Positions 18,492 to 30,773 of a DNA stretch of 64,000 nt are shown in pieces. Each line of letters opens with the position of its first letter. The stretch's first letter is position 1. The notes under the pieces were generated by a model. The model was given only the letters and a program-made list of their open reading frames with translations. It was not told the origin of the DNA and made no database searches. Where the stretch lies: positions 92,240 through 156,239 of the forward strand of contig CAWKKU010000006.1 in assembly GCA_963850295.1 (NCBI GenBank), given 5' to 3'. Made by a program: the position numbers and the translations under genes. The DNA is from Vicinamibacterales bacterium. GTDB taxonomy: Bacteria > Acidobacteriota > Vicinamibacteria > Vicinamibacterales > JAMQPK01.

Positions 18492-19396
18492 TTATTTGCC
18501 CATCGGACCGAGCACTTTGATGAACTGCAGCGCCGCGGGGCCGATCGTGACAATCCAGATAGCGGGGAAGATGCAGACGACCAGCGGGAAGACCATCTTC
18601 ACGCCGGTTTTCGCCGCCGCTTCTTCGGCGCGCTGGCGGCGTTTGGTCCGCAGGGTATCCGAGAACACGCGCAGCGAGTTGGCGACGCTGGTGCCGAACT
18701 TGTCCGTCTGGATCAACATCGCCACGAGCGAGGTCAGGTCGTCGACACCGGTGCGCTCGGCCATGTTTCGCAGCGCCTCGGAGCGTCCCTTGCCGGCAAG
18801 CAGCTCGAGGTTGACCAGCCGAAGCTCCGACGACAAATCGGGATAAGCAGAGGCGAGCTCCTGGGCCACTCGCGCGAGCGCCTGATCGAGACCGAGGCCC
18901 GCTTCGACGCTCACCACCAGCAGGTCGAGTGCGTCCGCCAGCGCCAGGCGGATGCGGTGCTGGCGCCGGCGCGCTTTCCGCGCCAGAACGATGCCGGGCA
19001 TGATGTAGCCGAAACCGGCCGCTGAAAGCGCCGTCATCAGGTTCGGCTTCACCAGAATCGGCGTCATGCAGAAGCCGAATGCCGCCAGCGCGAAGGACAC
19101 GCGGATGCCGAGAAAGACCGGCAGCGCTTCGCCCCGCGGTAGCCCGCCTGCACCAGGCGGAGCTGAATCTTGCTGAGATCCTTCGGATTCTTTGGCAGCC
19201 GCTCGCCCATGCGCTTCAGGAACGCGACGATCTGATCGGGAGATGCGTTGCCGTCGGCGGGCTGCGCCTGGCCGCCGACGACGTCGCGCAGCCGGTCGTC
19301 GATGTTGGCCGGGCGACCAGCCATGAGGGCATAGGTCACGGCTGTGACCAGCAGCGAACCGAATGCAAACGCGAGCAGTGGAAGCAGGAGCGTCAC
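18492..19396 (-). CDS. tadC: Flp pilus assembly inner-membrane protein TadC, one frameshift
   Basis: GTG 19396. T2SS-F-like region LALADALDLLVVSVEAGLGLDQAL and MLIQTDKFGTS. Frame change near 19135. Confidence 0.8.
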
Positions 19397-19399
19397 GGT

Positions 19400-20381
19400 T
19401 TACACCTCAATCTTGATGACTTGCCTGATCCAGAAGAAGCCGATCGCCTGCATCACGATCGACGCCATGATCATCAGTTGCCCCAGCCGCTCTTCGAAGA
19501 GCTGGTTCATGTGCTCGGGATTGATGAACGACAGCGCCAGCGCCAGAAACGCGGGGAGCGCCATCAGCACGTAGCCGGTGAACCGTCCGTGCGCGGTGTG
19601 CACGCGGACCTGGCGGCGAATCTTGAATCGCTCGCGGACGACGGCCGCGAGGTTGTCGAGAATCTCGGACAGGTTGCCGCCGGTCTCACGCTGGATGAGC
19701 ACAGCCGTGGTGAAGAAGCGCACGTCGAGGATGGGCACGCGCAGGCACAGGTTGTTCAGCGATTCTTTCAGCGGCAGGCCGAAGTTCTGCTCGTCGAACG
19801 CCTTTCTGAATTCCGGTCCGACCGGCTCGCCGAGCTCGTCGGCCACCATCTTCATGCCGGCGCTGAACGCATGGCCGGCGCGGATGCCGCGCGACAGCAG
19901 GTCCAGCGCTTCGGGGAAGGTCTCCTCGAACTTGTAGAGGCGCGCCGACCGCTTGTAGCGGACGATCGCCGGAAGCATGCACAGGCCGATGGCGAAGCCG
20001 AACGGCATCGCCCAGCTCTTGCCCGCGAGCACCATCGCGAGAAACGCGCAGACGACGGCGAGCACGAGCGAGATGAGAATCAGCGCGCTGGCGCTCAGCC
20101 CCATGCCGGACTGGTCGAGCCAGCGTTCGAACGACGATCCTTTCAGCGCCTGCCTCGCCACGCGGTCGATATTCGGCAGCGGACCGCTTTCTCCGTGCGC
20201 ACGAGCGACGCATCTCCGCCGCTCCCGCCGGCATGGCACCGATGCCGATCGACTCGTTCAGCCGCTGCTCGAACGTCTTCTCCCGCGCCGACTCCGATCG
20301 GCGGGTGACGAGAAGAAACAGACCCACCAGCGTTGCGGTGGAGGTGACGAAGACGAGCACGACGATCACTGACAGAGGCAT
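19400..20381 (-). CDS. tadB: Flp pilus assembly inner-membrane protein TadB, two frameshifts
   Basis: ATG 20381 overlaps the cpaF stop (TGATG). FPEALDLLSRGIRAGHAF and AVLIQRETGGNL. Frame changes at about 20190-20240. Confidence 0.8.
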
Positions 20382-21755
20382 CACCGCACCTCCAGCTGGC
20401 CGTCGAACATGTCGGGCGCGAGCTGAATGCCCGACTGTTTGAGCCGTTCGCACACCTTCGGCCGCACTCCGGTTGCGAGAAACCGTCCGATGACCTTCCC
20501 GTCGGGGCCGAGTCCGAGCTTCTCGAACCGGTAGATCTCCTGCATGGTGATGATGTCGCCTTCCATGCCGGTGATTTCCGACACGCTCGTCACCTTGCGG
20601 GTTCCGTCGCTCATGCGCGCCTGCTGCACGACAATCTGAATGGCCGAGGCAATCTGCTGGCGCATGGCCTTGTCGGGCAGGTTCACGTTGGCCATCGCGA
20701 CCATCGTCTCGAGCCTCGACAGCGCGTCGCGCGGCGTGTTCGCGTGGACGGTGGTGAGCGAGCCGTCGTGGCCGGTGTTCATCGCCTGCAACATGTCGAG
20801 CGCTTCTTCGCCGCGGACCTCGCCGACGATGATGCGGTCGGGGCGCATACGCAGAGAGTTGACCAGCAGCTGGCGCTGCCGCACCGCGCCTTTGCCTTCG
20901 ACGTTGGGCGGCCGCGTTTCCAGCCGCACGACGTGCTCCTGGCGCAACTGCAATTCCGCGGCGTCTTCGATCGTCACGATGCGATCGCGCATCGAGATGA
21001 ATGAGGACAGCACGTTCAGCAGCGTGGTTTTACCGGCGCCGGTACCGCCGCTGACGAGGATGTTCAACTTCGCCGCGACACAGTGCCGGAGGAACTCGAG
21101 CATGTTCGGCGCCAGCGCCTTGAACGCCACGAGATCGTCCGCCTGCAGCCGCTCGGCGGGAAAACGGCGGATCGACAGCAGCGGACCGTCGACCGCGAGC
21201 GGCGCGATAATCGCGTTGACGCGCGATCCGTCGGGCAGGCGCGCGTCGACCATCGGCGAGCTGTCGTCGATGCGGCGTCCGACGCCGCTGACGATGCGGT
21301 CGATGACCCGCAGCAGATGCTGGTCGTCCTGGAACGCCGCCGGCACCTGCTCGAGTTTGCCGGCGCGCTCGACGAACACCTGCTTGTGCGTGTTGACCAG
21401 GATGTCGCTGACCGTCTTGTCGCGCAGCAGCGGCTCCAGCGGACCGAACCCGAAAACTTCGTCGATGACGTCGCCGAGAATCGCGTCGCGTTCGGTGACC
21501 GACAGCGGCACGCCCGCCTCTGCGATGAGCGAGGAGACGAGGGCTCTGATCTCGGCTTCGACCCGGCTGCGTTCGGCCGTGGCGAGCTTTTCGAGGTTCA
21601 GCTTCGACAGGAGCTTGCGATGGACGCTGCCGCGGACTTCGAGATATTGCGCGCGCCTCGCGTTGACGACCGGATCGGCGGCGGCGTTTTTGCCGCGCCG
21701 TCCGGTGGAACCGAAGGCCGCATCGGCGGTTTGACGGTGACAGGGGTCGCCATGG
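20381..21755 (-). CDS. cpaF: Tad pilus secretion ATPase CpaF/TadA, one frameshift near the 5' end
   Basis: Walker [38 protein letters not shown] and [16 protein letters not shown] 21755 lies 3 nt after the cpaE stop, and the main frame is only reached after a frame change within the first about 50 codons. Confidence 0.9.
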
Positions 21756-21756
21756 C

Positions 21757-22935
21757 TTAAAAAATCCCGAGAAACGACGCTTTGACGCGCGCCGGTTCGT
21801 CCGAGGCCACCGGGGCGTGCGGGTTGATGATCTGTTTGGTGAACCGCTCGAACTGCGCCGCGAGATCGGAGTGGTTGGTCAGCGCCAGAGGCACGCCGGA
21901 ATTCATCGCCGCCGAGACGACGCTGTAGTCGCTCGGGAACATCATGTGCAGGCTGTGGCCGAGCGTCGTCTCGATCTGCTTGGGACCGATCTGATGCTGC
22001 TCGGACATGCGGTTCAGCAGCACGCGAAGCCGGTCCTTGCCGGCGCCCAGCTGCTCGAAGCGATCGACGATCCGATGTGAATTCCGGATCGACGCGATGT
22101 CGGGGTTGGCCACGAGATAAAGCGTGTCCGCGGCGAACACGGCGACATCGGCGACCGGTCCCGCTACCGAACCCGCGTCGACGATGACGAAGTCGTACGA
22201 ACGGCCGAGCTGCTGCAGCAGCTGCTCGACGCCCGCCGCATCGTGCGCCCCGGGACGGTCGATCTGGTCGCCGCCGGCGAGGATGTCGAGGCCCGACTTG
22301 TGCTTCACCACGAGCTCCCGCATGAACTCCTGGTCCATCCTGTGGAGGTTGTCGAGCGCGTCAATCAGCGTGAAGCGGGGCCGCACGCCGAGAAAGAGCG
22401 CGACCTCGCCGACGAACTGATGCAGGTCGATGATCAATGTCGGCCGCTTCGACAGCCTGGCGATGTCGATCGCCGTGTTGACCGCGAGGGTCGTCGTCCC
22501 GGCGCCCCCTTTCGCGCCGAAGAACGACAGCGTCACGCCGGATTTCGTGTTGTCTTTTGCCGGCCGGCTGCGTTCCGCGGTGCGTTTCAGCGCGGTATGG
22601 AGCGGCTCGGCGAGCGACGAGCCGTCGTCGTAGCCGGACCACGCGAGGTATTCGTTCGCGCCGGCGCGCATCGCGCTGAGAATCTGATCGGGCTCGGCCG
22701 ACGCGGCGACCGCGAAGATCGACGTCGACGGCCAGGACGCCCGGAAGCGCTCGATCGCTTCGGTCGTCGAGCTCGTCGCGCTGCGGATGTCGACGATCGC
22801 CAGGTCGAGCCACGTTCCGGCGGCGTGCTTTTCGTCGATGACGCCGATCGAGAAGCCGCTCGATCGGAGCAGCGACGTGATCGTCGAGCGAAAGTCGGGA
22901 TCACTCGTGGTGATGACTGCTGAAAGTTGTGCCAT
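21757..22935 (-). CDS. cpaE: CpaE/TadZ: pseudo-receiver plus ParA/MinD-like ATPase
   Basis: 392 aa, intact. N-terminal REC-like domain. Deviant Walker [15 protein letters not shown]. Confidence 0.85.
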
Positions 22936-22939
22936 GAGG

Positions 22940-24921
22940 TCACCGCCCCGATGTCTGTTGTCCTTCAGTGAGCTTCTGGTACTGCGTCACCAGGCGCTGG
23001 AGCTCGGCGTCGCGCGACGCTTTCTCCTTGGCGAGCCTGTCCGCAGCCTCTTTCACGCGCGCCGCTTCGGCCTGCTGCTGCGCAGCGAGCTTCTCCGCGG
23101 CCTTGCGGCGATTTCCTTTTCCTTGCGCTCGCGCTCCGAGCGCTCGGCTTCGACTTTCGCCGCCTGACGCGCACGTTCGCCGTCACGCTGTGCCTGGACG
23201 TGCGCCTCTTTGGCGGCGATCTCGTCCTGCTTGCGCTTGATCTCCGATTCTTTCTTTTCCTCTTCGCGCCGCTTGGCGTCGTCTTTCTTGGCCTGCTCGG
23301 CGTCCTTCTTCTCCTGAATGGCCGCCTGCTCGGCTCGCTTGCGTTCGATCTGTGCGGCGAGCTCCGCGGCCTTCCGTGCGTCTCTTGCAGCGGCTTCACG
23401 CTCCGCCTTGGTCGGGCCTGCCGGCGTGCCGGGGCGACCGCGAGCGGCGTGACCGGCATCGGGGCGGCAGGCGTCGTTGCGAACGGCTGCGCGGTCGTCG
23501 CGGTCTGCGAGGCGGCCGGCGACGCCGGCTTGGCGACGACCGGCGCGCTTTCGGGCGCGAAGGTCATCGGGCTGGTGAATGCGGGCGGAGGAGGCGCGAT
23601 ACGGTTGCGGTCGGGCTGCAGGAACGGCTGCACCAGCCCGGGCAGGTTCGGCGTCACTCCGGGTGAATCGCGGCGCACGATGTGCGGCGTGATCATCACG
23701 ACGAGCTCCGTCGCGCTCTTCTGATAGGCCTGGCTGCGGAACAGGTAGCCGAGAATCGGGATGTCGCCGATGCCGGGCACTCGCCGCAGCGATTCATCGA
23801 GGTTCTGATCGAGCATCCCCGCGATGGCGAACGTCTGCCCGTCGCGCAACTCGACCGAGGTCTCCGTGCGGCGGGTCTTCAGCGCCGGGATGCGGAATCC
23901 CTCGAGCACGACGGCGTTGCCGAAGTCGAGCGAGCTGACCTCGGGCGCGACCTTGAGCTGAATCCTGTCGTCGGCCGTCACGGTCGGCGTAAATCGCAGA
24001 CGGACGCCGAATTCCTTGAACACGATCGTCACCGCGTTGTTGTTGCCGTTTCCCTGCACGACGGGATACGGATATTCACCGCCGGCGAGGAAGGTGGCCT
24101 CCTGGCCGTCGCGCGTGATCAGGTTCGGCTCGGCCAGGCTCTGAAACAGCCCCTTGCCCTTCAGCGCGCGGATCGCCGCGCCCAGCTGTTCTTCGGTATT
24201 GAAGAGGAAGAGGTTGAGGAAGTCGGAGAAGACGAGGCCGTCGTCCCTGTCGAAGACCGGCGCCGCGAACTGCCCCGTCGTCGAGCGACCGACCCAGTCG
24301 CCTTTCCCGTTGGGCCCGGTGAAGAAATTTACGCCGAGCTCCTGCATCGCGCTGCGGCCGACTTCGGCGAAGCGCACGCGGAGCAGAATCTGGTTGGTCG
24401 CGGGCCCTTCCTGCTGGCGCATCAGGTTCACGACGTTGTCGGCCTTCTCGACGTAACCGAGGGCCAGCGACGAAGCGCGATCGACAATGTATTTGCTCGA
24501 TACCACCCCGGAGAGCACGACGTCTTTGCCGTTGCTCGCCGCGGTGATCGCCTCGCCGGGAAACAGCTTGCTGCAGCTGCGTGTCCAGGTTGCTCAGGTC
24601 GCGCTTCACCGCGACGTCGTAGGTCTTGATGCGGCCGTTGTCCGACCACACCAGCAGAGAAATCGTCCCGGGAATCTTGCCGTGCACCAGCAGCTCGTAG
24701 GGCGTGGTCACCACAGCGTCGGCGATGTCCGGCGTGGACAGCGACACGCGCGTGATCGGACGCTCCGTTCTGATGATGGCCGAGCGGCCGACCATCAAGT
24801 CGAGCTGCTCGGGGGCGACGGCGCCGACCGCATCGGCGCCCCGCGCGGCCACCTGCCCCGCTCGCGCGGTCGGCGGCAGAACCATGATCACCAGCAGAAG
24901 AATCGCAAGAGGACGTTTCAT
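22940..24921 (-). CDS. cpaC: CpaC/RcpA secretin with long C-terminal Pro/Ala linker and charged coiled-coil tail, three frameshifts
   Basis: Signal peptide MKRPLAILLLVIMVLPPTARA. Secretin core VPGIGDIPILGYLFRSQ...ELVVMITPHIV. Then about 70 aa P/A/T-rich and about 190 aa K/E/A/R-rich (KAEREAAARDARKAAELAAQIERKRAEQ...LVTQYQKLTEGQQTSGR, stop 22940-22942). Frame changes near 24568, 23437 and 23103. Confidence 0.85.
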
Positions 24922-24933
24922 TGTTCTGTGCTC

Positions 24934-25776
24934 CTATCCAACGACGACGTGGACGCGTTTATCGCCACGGATGATTTCGACAGAGGGTGGCGGCTGAACG
25001 GCTGCCGGTGGCTGCGGCTGTCCGGCAGGCACCGCTTTGCGCACGACGACGGTTCTCGCATGCGTGGTTCCGAGCAGCATGCCCGGCTTGATGCCCGAGG
25101 TGACGGGCGACTCGGTGTCGAGCGGGTTGCGAAGCGCCAGCTGAATCTTGCCTTCGGTGCTGGCGAGCGTGAGCTTTTCGGATTCTTCGGGCGTCACGAG
25201 CATCGTCACGACGGTCACCTGCATCGGCTTGCCGTCTTCGGTGTCCTGCTCGAGGCGCGTGCCGGCGGCGAGCACTTCGACGTTGGAGAGCACGACCTTG
25301 GTGGTGATGTCTTCCGACCGGCTGCTCGGGTTCGCGGTCGCGACCACGTCCACGCGCGTGCCCGGCAGCACGTAGCCGGCAACGCCAATCACTTCGTTCA
25401 CGCGCACCGACAACGCGCGCTTTCCAGGCGGAATAATCGGCGGCAGGCCGGCACCCGCTTCCTTCGAGGCGATCTTGCCCGGCAGGATGAGCTCGTTCTT
25501 GATCACCGACACGATGAGGCCACGGTCGACCAGCGCCGCGGGATCTTCGAATGCGCCTTCCGGCACGGCCGAGGCCGGCCAGTCGACGGCGATGAGATCT
25601 TCGCGCTTCAGCTGACGGCCGAGCGACAAGTCGCTGTTCGCGAGCACGACTTTGCGCGTCGGCACCGTCACGGTCTTGACCGGAACGTTCTGCAGGTAGT
25701 CGTAGGTGCCGTACGCAAGGCCCCCGCCCGCGAGTATGGCGATCAAAAACACGGTGAAGATTCGAACGCGAGTCAT
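24934..25776 (-). CDS. cpaB: Flp pilus assembly protein CpaB
   Basis: 280 aa, intact. N-terminal TM helix, a SAF-like domain, then an RcpC-like region (VGVAGYVLPGTRVDVV, VLSNVEVLA). Confidence 0.85.
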   Translation of the reverse strand: MTRVRIFTVFLIAILAGGGLAYGTYDYLQNVPVKTVTVPTRKVVLANSDLSLGRQLKREDLIAVDWPASAVPEGAFEDPAALVDRGLIVSVIKNELILPGKIASKEAGAGLPPIIPPGKRALSVRVNEVIGVAGYVLPGTRVDVVATANPSSRSEDITTKVVLSNVEVLAAGTRLEQDTEDGKPMQVTVVTMLVTPEESEKLTLASTEGKIQLALRNPLDTESPVTSGIKPGMLLGTTHARTVVVRKAVPAGQPQPPAAVQPPPSVEIIRGDKRVHVVVG

Positions 25777-25780
25777 TGGA

Positions 25781-26296
25781 TCACCTCATTAACGTTGCGA
25801 GAACGCAACCGGCGGCAATCGCCGGACCGTAGGGGAAACGATTGTGTTCAACGGGCGACTCGATCTCGGACGTCGCGGTCTCGCGCAGACCGAAGAGTCG
25901 CGCGGTCAGACGAAACGTGCGCAGCAGCCGTCCGCGGCGCCACGCGACGATGACCGCCAGCAGCCCTCCGGCGATCGCGGTCATCAGAAACGCGGGAATG
26001 ATGTGCTCGACGCCGACGACCGCGCCCGCCGCGGCAAAGAGCTTCACATCTCCACCCCCCGTTGCGCCCAGGACGTGGCCGGGCAGCATCAGCAGGAGGC
26101 CGAGAAAAAATCCAAGGAGCGACGAGCTGACGGACACGCCGCTGGCGCCGGTGGCGGCGAGCACGACGCCCGAGGCGGTTACGCCCAGCGAGATTCCGTT
26201 GGGAATCTTCCGTCGCGCCGAATCGACGATCGCCGCGCTGCCGAGTCCGGCGCAGAGCGCCGTCAGCATCACGGCGTCAGAACTGAATTGAGGCAA
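25781..26296 (-). CDS. cpaA: prepilin peptidase CpaA (A24 family)
   Basis: 171 aa polytopic protein. Catalytic Asp contexts IVDSARRKIPN and GGGDVKLF. The start may be the later M (MLTALCAG), because ATG 26296 overlaps flp-2 by 20 nt. Confidence 0.8.
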   Translation of the reverse strand: MPQFSSDAVMLTALCAGLGSAAIVDSARRKIPNGISLGVTASGVVLAATGASGVSVSSSLLGFFLGLLLMLPGHVLGATGGGDVKLFAAAGAVVGVEHIIPAFLMTAIAGGLLAVIVAWRRGRLLRTFRLTARLFGLRETATSEIESPVEHNRFPYGPAIAAGCVLATLMR

Positions 26297-26444
26297 TGCT
26301 CCCCCAGAACGTCGATGTGATCTCTGTTGCGAGCAGCTTCACGGCGGCGAGCGCGAAGATCGCGATCAACGATGCGAGGAGGCCGTATTCGAGCAAGTCC
26401 TGTCCGTCCTCGCGTTTTCCAAAGCGTCGCAGCAGAAACGTCAT
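26277..26444 (-). CDS. flp: Flp family type IVb pilin (copy 2)
   Basis: 55 aa: MTFLLRRFGKREDGQDLLEYGLLASLIAIFALAAV... The G/xxxxEY Flp motif is followed by a hydrophobic helix. RBS GGAGG. Confidence 0.8.
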   Translation of the reverse strand: MTFLLRRFGKREDGQDLLEYGLLASLIAIFALAAVKLLATEITSTFWGSIASIQF

Positions 26445-26534: not shown

Positions 26535-26711
26535 TTACGGGAGATCGGCCACGATCTTGTCGAAGATCGCGTCAACCTTCACACCGGCCGCGGTGACGGC
26601 CGTGACCGCGACGATCGCGATCAGCGCCACGAGCAGCGCGTATTCGAGAAGATCCTGACCGTCTTCGTTGCGGCGGAGCGAGTTGAAGATGCGAGTGACG
26701 ATGAGCAGCAT
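26535..26711 (-). CDS. flp: Flp family type IVb pilin (copy 1, promoter-proximal)
   Basis: 58 aa: MLLIVTRIFNSLRRNEDGQDLLEYALLVALIAIVAVTAV... Flp motif present. RBS GGGAGG 6 nt upstream of ATG 26711. Confidence 0.85.
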   Translation of the reverse strand: MLLIVTRIFNSLRRNEDGQDLLEYALLVALIAIVAVTAVTAAGVKVDAIFDKIVADLP

Positions 26712-26762
26712 GTTGTTCCTCCCTTTGCGCGCCGCGAAGGCGGTGCGACCGCGGCAAGTAAA

Positions 26763-26778
26763 CGCAACCGCCGTACCA
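26763..26778 (-). promoter_or_regulatory. sigma54-type -24/-12 promoter candidate for flp operon
   Basis: Minus-strand TGGTACGGCGGTTGCG versus consensus TGGCACG-N4-TTGCW. GG and GC are at the exact spacing. The predicted TSS lies about 41 nt upstream of the flp-1 ATG, and a T8 tract lies upstream. Confidence 0.45.
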
Positions 26779-27069
26779 CTCAAAAAAAATCTGCCGCGCG
26801 ATCGTCGCAAGTGTGTCTCTCGCGAATGAGTTAGCGCGGCAGCACTGCGCCGGCACGTGCAGGCCGTGCGTCGAAGCGGCACACGGGCAACTCGACAAAC
26901 TTCGTGTACGAACCGACCGACTTCGTGATTCTTCACGGCGGCGGCGGCGCTCTGCCGTTTTCGTAACTCACATGCGCGAATTGTCCGTGCCAGAGCCGGG
27001 ACCCGCGGCCAAAACGGAACACGAGCGCAAAAACGCAGCAAATGTGGGCGTCTTCGGGCCCTGCATAAG

Positions 27070-27085
27070 AGGTACGGCGATTGCG
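27070..27085 (+). promoter_or_regulatory. second sigma54-type -24/-12 motif facing the PEGA operon
   Basis: AGGTACGGCGATTGCG matches the flp-side motif at 14 of 16 positions. The predicted TSS (about 27096) falls at the annotated GTG 27097, so either the mRNA is leaderless, or the start is GTG 27121, or this is not a promoter. Confidence 0.35.
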
Positions 27086-27096
27086 AAAGGAGTCGT

Positions 27097-27366
27097 GTGT
27101 CGAGATCGGTTAGAGATTTCGTGATTTCCATCGCCGCTCTGCTGGTGCTGACGGCGGGGCTGGTATCGATCAACCCGCGGCTTCGTGAGCGGGCGGCGCA
27201 GATCCTGACGGATCCGCAGTTGGAGTCGGCGACCGGCACGGTGCAACAGGTGGCCGGATCGGCCGTGCTGGTGCTGCGCGGCTACGCCGGAGAGAACACG
27301 TATCTGTTTACGTTCCTCGTCGCCGCCTGCTGCTTCGTCGTGTTGATGCTGAAGGTTATCTCGTGA
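27097..27366 (+). CDS. small 2-TM membrane protein (89 aa), hypothetical
   Basis: GTG 27097 follows AAAGGAG. Hydrophobic helices FVISIAALLVLTAGLV and YLFTFLVAACCFVVLML. Its stop overlaps the next start (GTGA). Confidence 0.55.
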   Translation: MSRSVRDFVISIAALLVLTAGLVSINPRLRERAAQILTDPQLESATGTVQQVAGSAVLVLRGYAGENTYLFTFLVAACCFVVLMLKVIS

Positions 27367-30263
27367 GCCTCATCCTCGTCGTCCAGCCCGATGCCTCGCA
27401 AACGCGAGTGCTGCAAGAGGTCGCGCGCACGCTCGGCGTCGAGCTCGCCGTCGTCGATTCGACGAAACGCGCCGTCGACGCGATCAGCAGGAAGGTTCCG
27501 GACCTGATTCTGCTGAGCCCGATTCTGTCGCCGCGCGACGAAGACACCCTCATGACGTGCCTTCGTTCGCTCGACGGCGCATCACATCTGCAGACGGTCG
27601 CGATTCCGCAGTTCCGCGGGGAGAACACGGCAGCCGCCAAGAAGTCGGGGTTCGGCTTTCGAAAGAAAAAACCCGTCGAGGTTGCCGTCGGCGCCGATCC
27701 GAAGGAGTTTGCCAACGAGGTGGCCGCTCACCTTTCACGTGCCGCCGAAATTCGTAATCGGCCGCCGGCCGCCGAGCCGACGAAATCCGTGATCGAGTCC
27801 GGTGTGTTCTCGTCCAGCGCGTTTTACGCACCGAACGCACCTGTCGCACCCGACGCGCCCAACGCACCCAGGACGATGGGCACCTGGCATTCCGAGCCGC
27901 AGGCCCCATCGTACTCATGGAGTGACGAGGACGACATCGCGGCCTCGGCGATCATCGACCAGTCGATTGCGGAAGAGCAGCCGGCGGCGCCGCCGATCAT
28001 CAATATAGAGGAACCCTTCGTCCCGGCCCCGGTTGCCGCCGAGCCGGCGAAGCCGGCGGCGCGGGCGCCGTCGATCGCGGATGAGATCAGCCAGCTCGTG
28101 CGCCAGCTGGGCCTCGACGTGAAGCTGGGAGAGATTGACGAGGACACGCCGTCTTCCGTCTCCGCCGATCAGAACGACGATGTCTACGATTTCGGTGCGT
28201 CGCTCGATCGCGCGCGGAACCAGAACAAACTGAGCGACGAGCCTGCCGTCTCTGTCGCCGACGCCGAGGCGATCCGCGAGCGGGCGGTCGCGGAGGCGCG
28301 CGCGGTTGCGGAGCGTGAGGCCCGCCAGGCCAGCGCCGCAGAGATCGCCCGCGTGCAGGCGGAAGCCGAAACGATTCGCGATGCCGCGGTGGCTGAAGCG
28401 CGGGCGGCCGCCGAACGGGAAGCCCGCGAGGCGGTTGCCGCCGATCTTGCGCGCGTACAGATTGAGGCTGAGCAGATGCGCGAGGCGGCCATCGCCGAAG
28501 CGCGCGCGGCCGCCGAACGGGAGGCGCGCGAAGCCGTCGCGGCCGATCTGGCGCGTGTGCAGAGCGAAGCCGAGCAGATGCGGGAGTCGGCCATTGCAGA
28601 GGCGAAGGCCGCGGCCGAGCGCGAGGCCAGGGCGACGCTGGCCGCGGAGGTCGAGCGCGTCAGATCGGAGGCCCAGTCGACATTCACCGATGCACTGAAC
28701 AAGGTGAAGGTAGAGGCGGAGGAGGCCGAGCGGCGCCGGATGGAGGAAGAGCGCGCCAAGATGGAACAGGAGCGCGCCAAGGTCGAGCGGGCGAATGCCG
28801 AGGCGCAGGAGGCGTTCGCTCGGGAGCTCGCACGGGTGCGCGCGGAAGTCGAGGAGTCGCTCCAGGCGCAGCTCGACGCGGCACGGTCCGAGGCGGAGCG
28901 GATTCGCGCGGCGGAAGCAGAGGCGGCGCGCGAACGGGCGACGGTCGAAAGCCAGCTCAAGGCAGAGCTCGATCGGCTGAAGTTCGTCACTGCACAGGCA
29001 AGGAAAGCCGACGAGTCGGAGACCAAGCGCGCCTCTCATCAGATCAAACAGCTCGAGGCCGAGCTCGCGACCGTCCGCGCCAAAGCGGAAGAGCGCAAGG
29101 TCGATCATCTGGAAGAGTTACGCGCGCAGATGGCCGAAATGCGCGAAGCCGCGGCCCATCACGCGCGCGCGGCGGCAGCGGAGGCGGTTGCGGCAGAAGT
29201 GGCCCGCGCGACGGCCCAGGCCGCCGCCACGGCGCATATGACAGTGGCGCCGCAGCTGGCTGTGGGCGGCGGATATGCCAGGCCAACGGCCGTCATCACA
29301 CAGTTTCCGGCGCGTGACATGCCGAGGTTCGAGCCCCCGCACGAGGAGCCGGCGGAGCGGAACAGCCGCGACTACCTGAGCTTGTGGCAGCCCAAGGCAG
29401 CGCCGCCCCCGGCGGAAGTTCCCGACACGCCGGAACCAGAAGAAGACGGAGAGAGTCTCCTCTCGACAGTCGCGTCAATTGATTTCAAACGGCACGCGAA
29501 ATGGGCGCTGCCTGTTGCGGCGTGTCTCCTTCTCGTCACGGGCACCGGCACGGCCATCAGCACTGTCGCGAATCTCGTGAAGAGCGAGGAGAAGCCCGCA
29601 TTGACAGTGCAGCCAATCAAGGACGAACCGTTTATCGAGGTGGTCGAAAAGCGCGTTGGCCGAATCCGGATAGATTCGACGCCGGCGTCGGCGGAAGCCA
29701 TCATCAACGGCAAGAGCTATGGACGCACGCCGCTGACGATTCCCGACCTCGAGGCCGGCCTGCACACGCTCGTGCTGAAGAGCAGTGCAGGCACCATTAC
29801 CAGAAAGGTCACGGTAAAGGCGAACCAGACCACGATGGTCTCCGAAGCCGTTTTTTCGGGGTGGATGGCAATCTTCTCGGCCATTCCGGTAAAAGTGATC
29901 GTGGACGGCCGGCCGGTGCGTCTCAACGACGACAGCCGGGTGATGACGGCGCCAGGCAAGCGGACCGTCGAGTTCGTGAGCGAGCAGTTCAACTATCGCG
30001 TCACCGAAACGATCGACGTGCGTCCGGGTGAGACGACCGCGTTCACGCTGACGCTGCCGATGAGCAAGGTGCGGGTGAGCGCGCCGGCGGGCTCGGAGAT
30101 TCGCGTCGACGGTCAGCCGGCGGCGGGTATTCCGTCGGAAGGCCTGTCGGTCTCCATCGGCGCGCATGAAATCAGCGCAATTCATCCGGAGCGCGGCGAG
30201 CGGCGCGTCTCGGTTGACGTCAAACACGGCCGCTTGAACGAAGTATCGCTCCACTATGACTAA
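27363..30263 (+). CDS. 966-aa membrane protein: pseudo-receiver, long Ala/Glu/Arg coiled coil, TM helix, three PEGA domains
   Basis: N-terminal REC-like fold (ILVVQPD...VPDLILLSP, with the acceptor Asp position replaced). About 400 aa of coiled coil including 4 x 34-aa repeats. TM helix WALPVAACLLLVTGTGTAISTV. PEGA units (RIRIDSTPASAEAIINGKSYGRTPL..., VRVSAPAGSEIRVDGQP...). No frameshift. Confidence 0.8.
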   Translation: MSLILVVQPDASQTRVLQEVARTLGVELAVVDSTKRAVDAISRKVPDLILLSPILSPRDEDTLMTCLRSLDGASHLQTVAIPQFRGENTAAAKKSGFGFRKKKPVEVAVGADPKEFANEVAAHLSRAAEIRNRPPAAEPTKSVIESGVFSSSAFYAPNAPVAPDAPNAPRTMGTWHSEPQAPSYSWSDEDDIAASAIIDQSIAEEQPAAPPIINIEEPFVPAPVAAEPAKPAARAPSIADEISQLVRQLGLDVKLGEIDEDTPSSVSADQNDDVYDFGASLDRARNQNKLSDEPAVSVADAEAIRERAVAEARAVAEREARQASAAEIARVQAEAETIRDAAVAEARAAAEREAREAVAADLARVQIEAEQMREAAIAEARAAAEREAREAVAADLARVQSEAEQMRESAIAEAKAAAEREARATLAAEVERVRSEAQSTFTDALNKVKVEAEEAERRRMEEERAKMEQERAKVERANAEAQEAFARELARVRAEVEESLQAQLDAARSEAERIRAAEAEAARERATVESQLKAELDRLKFVTAQARKADESETKRASHQIKQLEAELATVRAKAEERKVDHLEELRAQMAEMREAAAHHARAAAAEAVAAEVARATAQAAATAHMTVAPQLAVGGGYARPTAVITQFPARDMPRFEPPHEEPAERNSRDYLSLWQPKAAPPPAEVPDTPEPEEDGESLLSTVASIDFKRHAKWALPVAACLLLVTGTGTAISTVANLVKSEEKPALTVQPIKDEPFIEVVEKRVGRIRIDSTPASAEAIINGKSYGRTPLTIPDLEAGLHTLVLKSSAGTITRKVTVKANQTTMVSEAVFSGWMAIFSAIPVKVIVDGRPVRLNDDSRVMTAPGKRTVEFVSEQFNYRVTETIDVRPGETTAFTLTLPMSKVRVSAPAGSEIRVDGQPAAGIPSEGLSVSIGAHEISAIHPERGERRVSVDVKHGRLNEVSLHYD
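28290..28697 (+). repeat. in-frame tandem repeat, 4 x 102 bp (34 aa)
   Basis: Units start at 28290, 28392, 28494 and 28596. The peptide unit is AEARAAAEREAREAVAADLARVQxEAEQMREAAI. The two middle units are nearly identical. Confidence 0.9.
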
Positions 30264-30624
30264 CACCGCCGTCGCCCGTAACGTGGCGACTGGAACGATC
30301 GTCGCGGATCGCGTAGCTGTGGCGTCGAACAGACGCGATCGTGCCGTCGGTCTGCTGACGCGCAGTCATCTCGAGCCTGGCGAAGGGCTGTGGATCACGC
30401 CGTGCCGCGGCGTGCATACCTGGTTCATGCGGTTTCCGATCGACGTGCTCGCGCTCGATCAGGACGGGTTCGTCGTCGATGCGGTATCGACGCTGAAGCC
30501 CTGGCGGATGCGGCTGCCGAAGCGCGGCGAGCACAGCGTGCTCGAGCTTCCGGCCGGAACGCTGGCCAGCGCAGGCACAAAAGTGGGTCACCGAATCAAG
30601 ATTGAGTCGGCAGCTTCACACTGA
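30256..30624 (+). CDS. DUF192 domain protein
   Basis: ATG 30256 lies inside the last codons of the upstream gene (8-nt overlap). GLWITPCRGVHTWFMRFPIDVLALDQDG is the DUF192 core as I recall it. Confidence 0.7.
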   Translation: MTNTAVARNVATGTIVADRVAVASNRRDRAVGLLTRSHLEPGEGLWITPCRGVHTWFMRFPIDVLALDQDGFVVDAVSTLKPWRMRLPKRGEHSVLELPAGTLASAGTKVGHRIKIESAASH

Positions 30625-30640
30625 ACGCATTTTTCACTGG

Positions 30641-30732
30641 TCTTCTCTGTCTCAACACGGACACACGGAGACACGGAGTTCTTCGAACCACGAAGGCACG
30701 AAAGAACCACGAAGACACGAAGCACACGAAGG
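30641..30732. repeat. two adjacent oligomer-repeat blocks (CTCTGTC/CACGGAG, then CACGAAG family)
   Basis: 30641-30678 is tcttctctgtctcaacacggacacacggagacacggag. 30688-30732 is ccacgaaggcacgaaagaaccacgaagacacgaagcacacgaagg, the reverse complement of the CTTCGTG family. Confidence 0.8.
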
Positions 30733-30773
30733 CGACAACACGACGACGCGATGGCTCGATGGGGTCATGACGC

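Follow-up and report, generated by a model that had tools for sequence, protein, structure and literature searches.

Which part, if any, do genes play in a Tad pilus system when they stand back to back with its pilin genes and match none of its named components? The question is raised by a locus in a stretch of 64,000 nucleotides from a Vicinamibacterales bacterium (assembly GCA_963850295.1, contig CAWKKU010000006.1, positions 92,240 to 156,239; "the window" in the following is this whole stretch). Three genes are transcribed there away from a pair of flp pilin genes. They encode a small protein with two predicted transmembrane (TM) helices, a protein of 966 residues, here called the large protein, and a DUF192 protein. 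We report that the linkage of the large gene to flp/tad is strictly conserved at long range, and that the gene set probably positions or regulates the pilus machine. To the more specific reading that it forms a scaffold or gating accessory dedicated to the Tad pilus we assign a probability of about 50%.

In many bacteria adhesion and the formation of biofilms depend on Tad pili as a driving force. The factors that assist or position these pili are known from only a few models, among them PodJ/CpaE of Caulobacter and PprB of Pseudomonas. Vicinamibacteria are Acidobacteriota that abound in soil, and hardly any genetics is available for them.

Linkage of the gene set to flp/tad loci

The three genes and the parts of the large protein discussed below are located in the window as follows:

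27097-27366, + strand: small 2-TM gene, 89 residues, GTG start (open reading frame (ORF) list)
27363-30263, + strand: large gene, 966 residues, GTG start, intact (ORF list)
27363-27767, + strand: predicted pseudo-receiver domain, residues 1-135 of the large protein (PDB profile, AlphaFold2 (AF2) model, Foldseek, alignments)
28260-29282, + strand: Ala/Glu/Arg-rich region, residues ~300-640 (composition, Tandem Repeats Finder (TRF))
29499-29576, + strand: predicted single TM helix, residues ~713-738 (hydropathy; helix in the AF2 model)
29655-30248, + strand: three tandem beta-sandwich domains, residues 765-829, 833-895 and 900-962 (Pfam, AF2)
30256-30624, + strand: DUF192 gene, 122 residues, ATG start (ORF list)

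The three ORFs and their two overlaps, on which a preliminary description of this DNA was built, are all present in the ORF list and in the sequence. The tetranucleotide GTGA at 27363-27366 holds the stop of the small gene and the start of the large gene in one, and the ATG at 30256 overlaps the last codons and the TAA of the large gene by 8 nt, as ATGACTAA. The start codons of the small and the large gene are supported because the N-termini of homologues begin at equivalent residues, with M/V-P-R-K-x-R-D in the small and M/V-S-x-x-L-V in the large protein.

A protein search with the large protein returned 193 relatives. Those carrying a taxon label are assigned to Vicinamibacterales or Acidobacteria, and the source names given to them are "PEGA domain-containing protein", "CheY-like chemotaxis protein" and "hypothetical protein" only. 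Scanning GTDB with an N-terminal alignment of ten sequences, one genome per species, yielded 48 species loci. All of them come from metagenome-assembled genomes (MAGs) and bear Vicinamibacterales or Acidobacteriota labels but for two; these two odd record labels apart, all relatives belong to uncultured Acidobacteriota. The two records (L010 and L023 in our numbering of loci) are labelled "uncultured Bifidobacteriaceae" and "uncultured Alphaproteobacteria", which probably reflects mislabelling or contamination of the MAGs.

In four metagenomic contigs, whose relatives of the large protein are 32-68% identical, the gene is divergent from an flp-cpaA-rcpC-secretin-tadZ-cpaF-tadB-tadC series. Two further contigs found via the small protein (L058 and L059) have the same divergent arrangement, so that it occurs in 6 out of 6 contigs. 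In GTDB the divergent arrangement with tad genes and one to three copies of flp was seen, by tblastn with Tad proteins, in every locus with enough upstream DNA. Neither a receiver-domain identity as low as about 40% nor a different C-terminal architecture breaks this linkage. The downstream flank, which served as a control, differs in 6 out of 6 annotated contexts; the neighbours include ABA4-like and ThuA proteins, unknown proteins, a superoxide dismutase, and an SNF2 helicase with a methyltransferase. Because the opposite flank turns over completely, the linkage on the flp side is more than inherited gene order. The specificity to this pilus system that the preliminary description had suspected, and for which it had proposed a survey of gene neighborhoods, is thus borne out as linkage in the six contigs and in those of the 48 GTDB loci that include enough upstream DNA, with variable surroundings downstream.

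The family defined by the N-terminal domain is sizeable. A receiver-profile search of 1.84 billion representatives gave approximately 390 clusters (50% identity) at E<=1e-30, and in all but one of the 150 best matches listed the domain is N-terminal or nearly so, with total lengths of 115-1171 residues. Compared to Pfam and NCBIfam, the large protein and its partner proteins have significant matches to PEGA and DUF192 only and to no named Tad family (Flp, TadV/CpaA, RcpC/CpaB, RcpA/CpaC, TadZ, TadA/CpaF, TadB, TadC, TadD, TadE/F/G). For the large protein at full length no characterised family was found in Pfam, NCBIfam or the protein search. Literature searches on PEGA with Flp, DUF192 with Tad and Vicinamibacter with Flp retrieved no description of the module either. 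The suggestion that the large protein is not a described Tad component therefore holds, as no named Tad family matches any of the three proteins.

The core pair and its lineage variants

The preliminary description had proposed in the large protein a REC-like domain without the acceptor Asp, at DLILLS. For residues 1-135, profile comparison, AF2 and Foldseek agree on this fold. A profile of 38 sequences matched almost solely receiver chains in the PDB (best 3gt7, E 4e-5), while the Pfam receiver match of the single sequence was sub-threshold (E 0.11). PDLILLS aligns on PDLILLD of YycF, which puts Ser52 at the position of the acceptor Asp; in all aligned family members of both clades of the large protein this position is occupied by S, T, N or H, never by Asp. 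The AF2 model (predicted local distance difference test score (pLDDT) 84) has the order b1-a1-b2-a2-b3-a3-b4, a disordered loop and a5. The loop is Lys-rich (KKSGFGFRKKK, residues 88-100), stands in place of a4, and is conserved in the alignments. Foldseek with this model retrieved mainly BaeR, KdpE, the CikA pseudo-receiver and DivK. Judged from profile and model, the N-terminus of the large protein belongs to the REC superfamily, and because the acceptor Asp is replaced it falls into the pseudo-receiver class. Invariant residues include D10, P46-D47, S56-P57-R58, E60, H75, Q77-T78, P82, G110, D112-P113 and F116, and SPRDED and HLQT are invariant motifs; by positional mapping the Lys of the canonical "KP" motif would correspond to Asp112 (Asp112-Pro113).

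The pseudo-receiver is followed by a disordered linker rich in Ala, Pro, Ser and Asp (residues 136-299), for which no family match was found. A 9-nt repeat, ACGCACCCA, occurs there in five copies (27826-27870) and encodes the linker stretch APNAPVAPDAPNAP. The subsequent region of about 340 residues (~300-640) consists of 29% Ala, 18% Glu and 13% Arg, and contains a tandem repeat of 102 nt (34 residues) in 3.1 copies (28317-28628, TRF). It had been described as a coiled coil of about 400 residues; the Ala/Glu/Arg-rich stretch stands, and a coiled coil in it is no more than putative. Because a heptad signal is missing we speak of a long, charged, presumably helical spacer. Across the family its length is variable, at 300-700 residues, and it is repeat-rich.

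The proposed single TM helix at residues ~713-738 was recovered by hydropathy as well as in the AF2 model, and KRHAK directly precedes it. As the large protein has no N-terminal signal peptide and one TM helix, its N-terminal 700 residues would be cytoplasmic and its C-terminus periplasmic. AF2 predicts three beta-sandwich domains in residues 692-966 with a pLDDT above 90. The first matches PEGA (PF08308; residues 766-827, E 1.8e-15, 57 bits versus a cut-off of 20.8), the second has a weak PEGA score in Pfam (E 0.025), and for the third no Pfam PEGA match was found. Of the three periplasmic PEGA domains assumed initially, three beta-sandwiches are thus present, and a significant profile match is restricted to the first. 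The fold appears generic, because Foldseek with the C-terminal model gave only tandem Ig-like arrays and carboxypeptidase regulatory-like domains.

The small protein is, as had been assumed, a 2-TM peptide by hydropathy, with hydrophobic helices at residues ~7-26 and ~68-88. Its order is a basic N-terminus, TM1, NPRLRER, a loop of about 40 residues, ENTYLFTFLV with TM2, and MLKVIS; comparison to Pfam and NCBIfam gave no family match. In 52 loci scanned for the partner gene (the 48 GTDB loci and four metagenome contigs) it lies directly 5' of the pseudo-receiver gene in nearly all cases. The distance between its stop and the start of the large gene ranges from -4 to +47 nt in almost all loci. 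Exceptions are a contig edge, long-read MAGs with frameshifts, and a few loci where the gap is wider or a small ORF is not clearly recognisable. Small proteins that accompany either clade of the large protein can be aligned over their full length. Its family comprises at least 1463 clusters, of which 120 listed range from 86 to 108 residues; the matches listed in these later protein searches represent the close family only and are silent on relatives outside Acidobacteriota.

The C-terminus of the large protein varies more strongly. In the clade of the window it consists of the TM helix and the three beta-sandwiches. A sister clade with about 40-45% identity in the receiver domain (L022-L052, L058:7270-8520 and L059:7291-8577; proteins P0259-P0366) has no TM or periplasmic part and ends in a conserved, basic, soluble module of about 70 residues (L.PLA.WAR ... 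VA.V.Y..GCRIRRVRV ... VILSKR.L), for which neither a Pfam match nor a PDB sequence match was found. A third variant (L030:2714-5617; P0275, P0277) possesses one TM helix, a linker and a hydrophobic multi-TM tail reading ...MCVLAVMLLLRIALFVGEGFVWHGLV..LGLVLLGFALM, and no PEGA. After the receiver domain the sister clade shares the motif SSW(S/A)(D/S)PF(E/A)WK; SYSWSDEDD, which occurs in the window protein at a similar distance behind this domain, may be related.

The swapping of the C-terminus between lineages is an argument that the core of the family is the 2-TM protein together with a pseudo-receiver on a long variable spacer. The predicted anchoring of the large protein at its far end differs by lineage, and in lineages whose large protein has no TM helix the small membrane protein is an obvious candidate anchor. 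Two proposals of the preliminary description have to be narrowed accordingly. Of the three-gene operon the 2-TM/pseudo-receiver pair is conserved, and DUF192 is not a fixed third gene. An envelope-spanning protein is predicted for the lineage of the window, and not for the sister lineages with their soluble domain of about 70 residues or multi-TM tail.

The DUF192 gene and the surrounding locus

The assignment of the third gene to DUF192 (PF02643) is clear (E 9.3e-18, 64.6 bits versus a cut-off of 27), as had been claimed; the match spans residues 20-116 and profile positions 3-96 of 96. By hydropathy the protein has no signal peptide and no hydrophobic segment, and we consider it cytoplasmic. 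DUF192 (COG1430) relatives in the PDB are 3m7a and 3pjy (E 0.014-0.036), both uncharacterised. One of them is titled a signal-peptide protein, whereas the DUF192 subgroup linked to Tad has no signal peptide. A periplasmic proteome paper on N. aromaticivorans, the source of 3m7a, reportedly mentions DUF192.

The gene stands directly 3' of the large gene only in the clade closest to the window, and in L002 and L050 it follows tadC in the opposite operon. A tblastn search of plasmids with DUF192 gave 15 hits, and 5 out of 5 contexts inspected are pilus-related. On a Moraxella bovis plasmid the order is cpaB, secretin, ATPase, T2SSF, T2SSF, DUF192, TadE; on three Streptomyces plasmids it is CpaF, TadB, TadC, a small ORF, three TadE/TadG-family genes, a LysM protein and DUF192; and on an Alkaliphilus plasmid a prepilin peptidase is followed by DUF192. 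DUF192 therefore sits in a Tad or prepilin-peptidase locus in every case examined. The plasmid proteins give a good alignment, and a signal peptide is missing from all of them. Independently, a genome paper of 2025 (PMC12786226) reported for Bulleidia and Helcococcus that a DUF192 gene stands at the 3' end of their Tad operons. Because of these pilus contexts, the missing signal peptide and the Bulleidia/Helcococcus report, we regard the subgroup as a recurrent Tad accessory. We conclude from sequence and gene context that the DUF192 protein would be a separate, small cytoplasmic accessory of Tad loci in several phyla. The linkage across phyla turns a structurally solved domain without function into a directly testable hypothesis.

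Some details of the plasmid loci may be added. On the Moraxella bovis plasmid (L053; NZ_CP087831.1, 68446-86778) DUF192 lies between tadC and a TadE-family gene of 333 residues, and directly after this Tad locus come toxin-like genes of the RHS repeat type and a lytic transglycosylase. The LysM proteins of the Streptomyces plasmids have about 1124-1133 residues (L054:5540-9306, L056:5575-9423, L057:5540-9291), and that of L054 has N-terminal hydrophobic segments. The Streptomyces order of a large envelope protein followed by DUF192 parallels the order in the window. The L054 LysM protein was considered as a relative of the large protein and rejected, as no sequence resemblance was evident by eye, without an alignment.

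On the other side of the three genes the window carries the Tad genes listed below. They were identified by tblastn with proteins of locus L001, themselves labelled by Pfam; the Flp of L001 used as query carries Pfam Flp_Fap.

26712-27096, no strand: divergent intergenic region (DNA alignment of eight genomes)
26535-26711, - strand: flp pilin gene 1, 58 residues, MLLIVTRIFNSLRRNEDGQDLLEYALL... (ORF; tblastn with L001 Flp)
26277-26444, - strand: flp-like pilin gene 2, 55 residues (ORF list, tblastn)
25781-26296, - strand: cpaA peptidase (ORF list; tblastn with intact L001 proteins, as for all following genes)
24934-25776, - strand: cpaB
22965-24921, - strand: secretin
21757-22935, - strand: tadZ
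~20381-21760, - strand: cpaF
~18492-20453, - strand: tadB and tadC

The divergence stated in the preliminary description is accordingly correct: two flp genes on the - strand are followed by cpaA, cpaB, secretin, tadZ, cpaF and tadBC. It was equally right about an intact long gene among frameshifted ones, since the ORF of 966 residues is whole and several Tad genes are split. The secretin, tadB and tadC of the window (18492-24921) are each divided among several ORFs or tblastn pieces, a pattern suggestive of frameshifts. The large gene itself is broken in several long-read MAGs whose isolate names contain "MFD" (L006-L008, L013, L015, L017, L019, L020 and L023). Judged from the sequences, the split Tad genes and the broken large genes of the MFD genomes look like indel errors of long-read assembly and not like pseudogenes.

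The secretins of the window, of L001 (5548-7551, - strand) and of L058 (2723-4726, - strand) have about 667 residues and an unusual C-terminal extension of about 200 residues, which is Pro/Ala-rich first and then rich in Ala, Glu, Lys and Arg. The window secretin is distributed over two ORFs, and its tail reads Arg/Ser/Pro-rich and out of frame, again suggestive of a frameshift.

The small gene and the flp pair lie on opposite strands approximately 385 bp apart. Aligning this intergenic region of the window with those of L001, L005, L009, L010, L011, L013 and L016 revealed many blocks that are invariant across the eight genomes. The block TCGACAAACTTCGTGTACGAACCGACCGACTTCGTGATT holds a direct repeat, ACTTCGTG, in two copies. 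Further invariant blocks are AACGCAAC.G.CGTACCA and GAATTGT, and GGTACG....TTGCGA stands just before the start of the small gene. These blocks probably represent promoters and operators of both divergent operons. A scan for promoter and terminator consensus gave nothing above shuffled sequences and no sigma-70 consensus in the intergenic region. As an Rfam scan of the region between flp and the small gene was empty, no known riboswitch, such as one for c-di-GMP (cyclic di-GMP), was detected. At the other end, 3' of the DUF192 gene, positions 30655-30735 contain ACACGGAG three times and then several copies of CACGAAG. The repeats lie between the operon and the oppositely oriented gene that comes next, a gap in which no canonical terminator was detected.

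Proposed function, alternatives and known systems

Translated into a mechanism, the core of the module would be a translationally coupled pair of a small 2-TM inner-membrane protein and a long pseudo-receiver protein. The non-phosphorylatable pseudo-receiver could serve as a head for protein-protein interactions, with the Lys-rich loop on a binding face of the FrzS type, and the charged spacer of about 340 residues, probably helical, could form the tether. Attachment to the inner membrane, beside TadZ/CpaF/TadBC, would come from the 2-TM protein and, in the lineage of the window, also from the TM helix of the large protein. The three PEGA-type domains would reach into the periplasm and could touch peptidoglycan, CpaB or the charged tail of the secretin. 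In this way the pair may tether, position or gate the cytoplasmic Tad platform (TadZ/CpaF/TadBC). The nearest working models would be PodJ recruiting CpaE and FrzS recruiting the activator of the type IVa pilus. Gene structure, domain folds and the linkage to flp/tad are established by the data; the topology, the binding partners, and a role in scaffolding or gating in preference to transcription are what we infer.

One must keep in mind that several observations weigh against such a scaffold. All loci stem from one acidobacterial lineage, and part of the synteny may be inherited and not selected. A role spanning the periplasm cannot be the core function of the family, because sister lineages do without a TM or periplasmic part. 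The hydrophobic 3.5-residue periodicity of the Ala/Glu/Arg-rich region is not above that of shuffled sequences. With regard to the two models, the FrzS chains 2gkg, 2nt3, 2nt4, 9qy8 and 9ckx were found at E 0.035-0.26, behind ordinary response regulators, and comparison of the large protein to Pfam gave no TPR, Sel1 or peptidoglycan-binding match and no homology to PodJ. The pseudo-receiver was also considered as a paralogue of the atypical receiver domain (ARD) of TadZ and rejected (hhalign against the window TadZ, probability 0.4%); the echo of the CpaE/TadZ pseudo-receiver perceived in the preliminary description is thus not a specific relation. Of the sequencing runs searched, a single one, from soil DNA, contained part of the sequence (7% of the sampled words), and no RNA run did.

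A last point against a scaffold is that the divergent placement by flp and the conserved intergenic region fit a regulator of flp expression equally well. The module would then be a signalling device controlling flp/tad expression, in which the pseudo-receiver acts like a partner switch or an anti-sigma factor by sequestering or releasing a factor of transcription or translation, and the periplasmic PEGA domains of the window lineage sense an envelope or surface cue. Divergent transcription across a region with invariant blocks and a direct repeat is a layout typical of local regulators, the predicted topology, with an interaction domain in the cytoplasm and further domains in the periplasm on either side of one TM helix, is like that of transmembrane anti-sigma factors and one-component sensors, and pseudo-receivers often work via protein-protein contacts (PMC12632262). 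We nevertheless regard such a signalling device, the main alternative, as unlikely: no DNA-binding, sigma-binding or enzymatic output domain was detected, the sister lineages have no extracytoplasmic sensing domain, and a variable, repeat-rich spacer of 300-700 residues, as tethers and scaffolds typically have, would be uncommon in a switch. Considerably less probable still is that the large protein represents a general landmark of the pole or envelope, of the PodJ, FimV/HubP or TolA type, and stands next to flp through inherited order. Membrane-anchored, long, charged helical proteins are common polar hubs (PMC9684454), and the origin of every locus from one lineage would suit this explanation. 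It is at odds with a linkage that outlasts a drop to about 40% identity, the replacement of the C-terminus and the full turnover of the opposite flank, and no peptidoglycan-binding, LysM, TPR or TolA/TonB domains were detected in the large protein. From the split Tad genes of the window and the broken large genes of several MFD MAGs one might suspect that the three genes share no function and stand side by side without being related, or that they are products of an assembly prone to frameshifts. This is already contradicted by the intact architecture of the large protein in independent JGI, ENA and NCBI assemblies, by the narrow lengths of all 120 listed clusters of the small-protein family, by the conserved start/stop overlaps and by domains that fold with high confidence.

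We thus prefer a Tad-dedicated scaffold or gating accessory, which would also permit a wider and more tentative proposal. The 2-TM and pseudo-receiver pair could constitute an unrecognised class of Tad positioning or gating factors, its non-phosphorylatable receiver docking on a long tether onto the TadZ/CpaF platform, and at the same time DUF192 could be an overlooked cytoplasmic Tad component common to the Tad loci of Acidobacteriota, Actinomycetota, Bacillota and Pseudomonadota. That both parts hold together is possible but doubtful; if they did, this would be the first cellular role for DUF192. The family itself, sizeable, generically named and with its own membrane partner beside flp, provides testable candidates for the placement or control of pili.

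Among known systems, PodJ of Caulobacter crescentus, a polar scaffold that recruits CpaE (TadZ) and PleC, has the topology predicted for the window protein, with a long cytoplasmic N-terminus, one TM helix and a periplasmic C-terminus, and it is tied functionally to the Tad/Cpa pilus, as the window protein would be. A receiver domain is missing from PodJ, in contrast to the receiver fold at the N-terminus of the large protein, and its periplasmic part is made up of TPR/Sel1 and a peptidoglycan-binding domain where the large protein has PEGA. The podJ gene is not known to be encoded in the cpa locus. The cytoplasmic part of PodJ combines coiled coil and a disordered region, its periplasmic domain modulates pilus biogenesis, and its recruitment of CpaE is direct (PMC9684454). 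TadZ/CpaE of the same locus shares with the large protein a non-phosphorylatable, receiver-like N-terminal domain; the TadZ proteins of L001, L058 and L059 have faint or weak Response_reg and AAA_31 matches. It differs by its MinD/ParA-like ATPase domain, as the large protein has no AAA_31 match.

The pseudo-receiver architecture as such recalls FrzS and AglZ of Myxococcus xanthus, regulators of motility machines, which likewise have an N-terminal receiver fold without acceptor Asp; in both cases a linker and an extended charged stretch follow, the latter presumably helical in the large protein. In FrzS a pseudo-receiver that lacks the Asp is joined to a coiled coil, and the protein acts as a polar beacon for a pilus activator (PMC1974792, PMC9811614). 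Like the large protein, it is tied genetically to a type IV filament machine, and it is soluble, as is the large protein of the sister lineages. FrzS binds SgmX through its a3-b4-a4 face (PMC12632262), and this is where the large protein has its conserved Lys-rich loop. The differences are that FrzS serves the type IVa pilus and the large protein is linked to the Tad (type IVc) pilus, that the latter has, in the window, a TM helix and periplasmic domains, that it has an obligatory 2-TM partner gene, and that its a4 is replaced by a disordered loop and its spacer has no heptad signal. Judged by sequence and domain order, the large protein resembles FrzS and PodJ in architecture and is a member of neither family. 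A pseudo-receiver on a long spacer next to the genes of a type IVc pilus would parallel what FrzS represents for type IVa pili.

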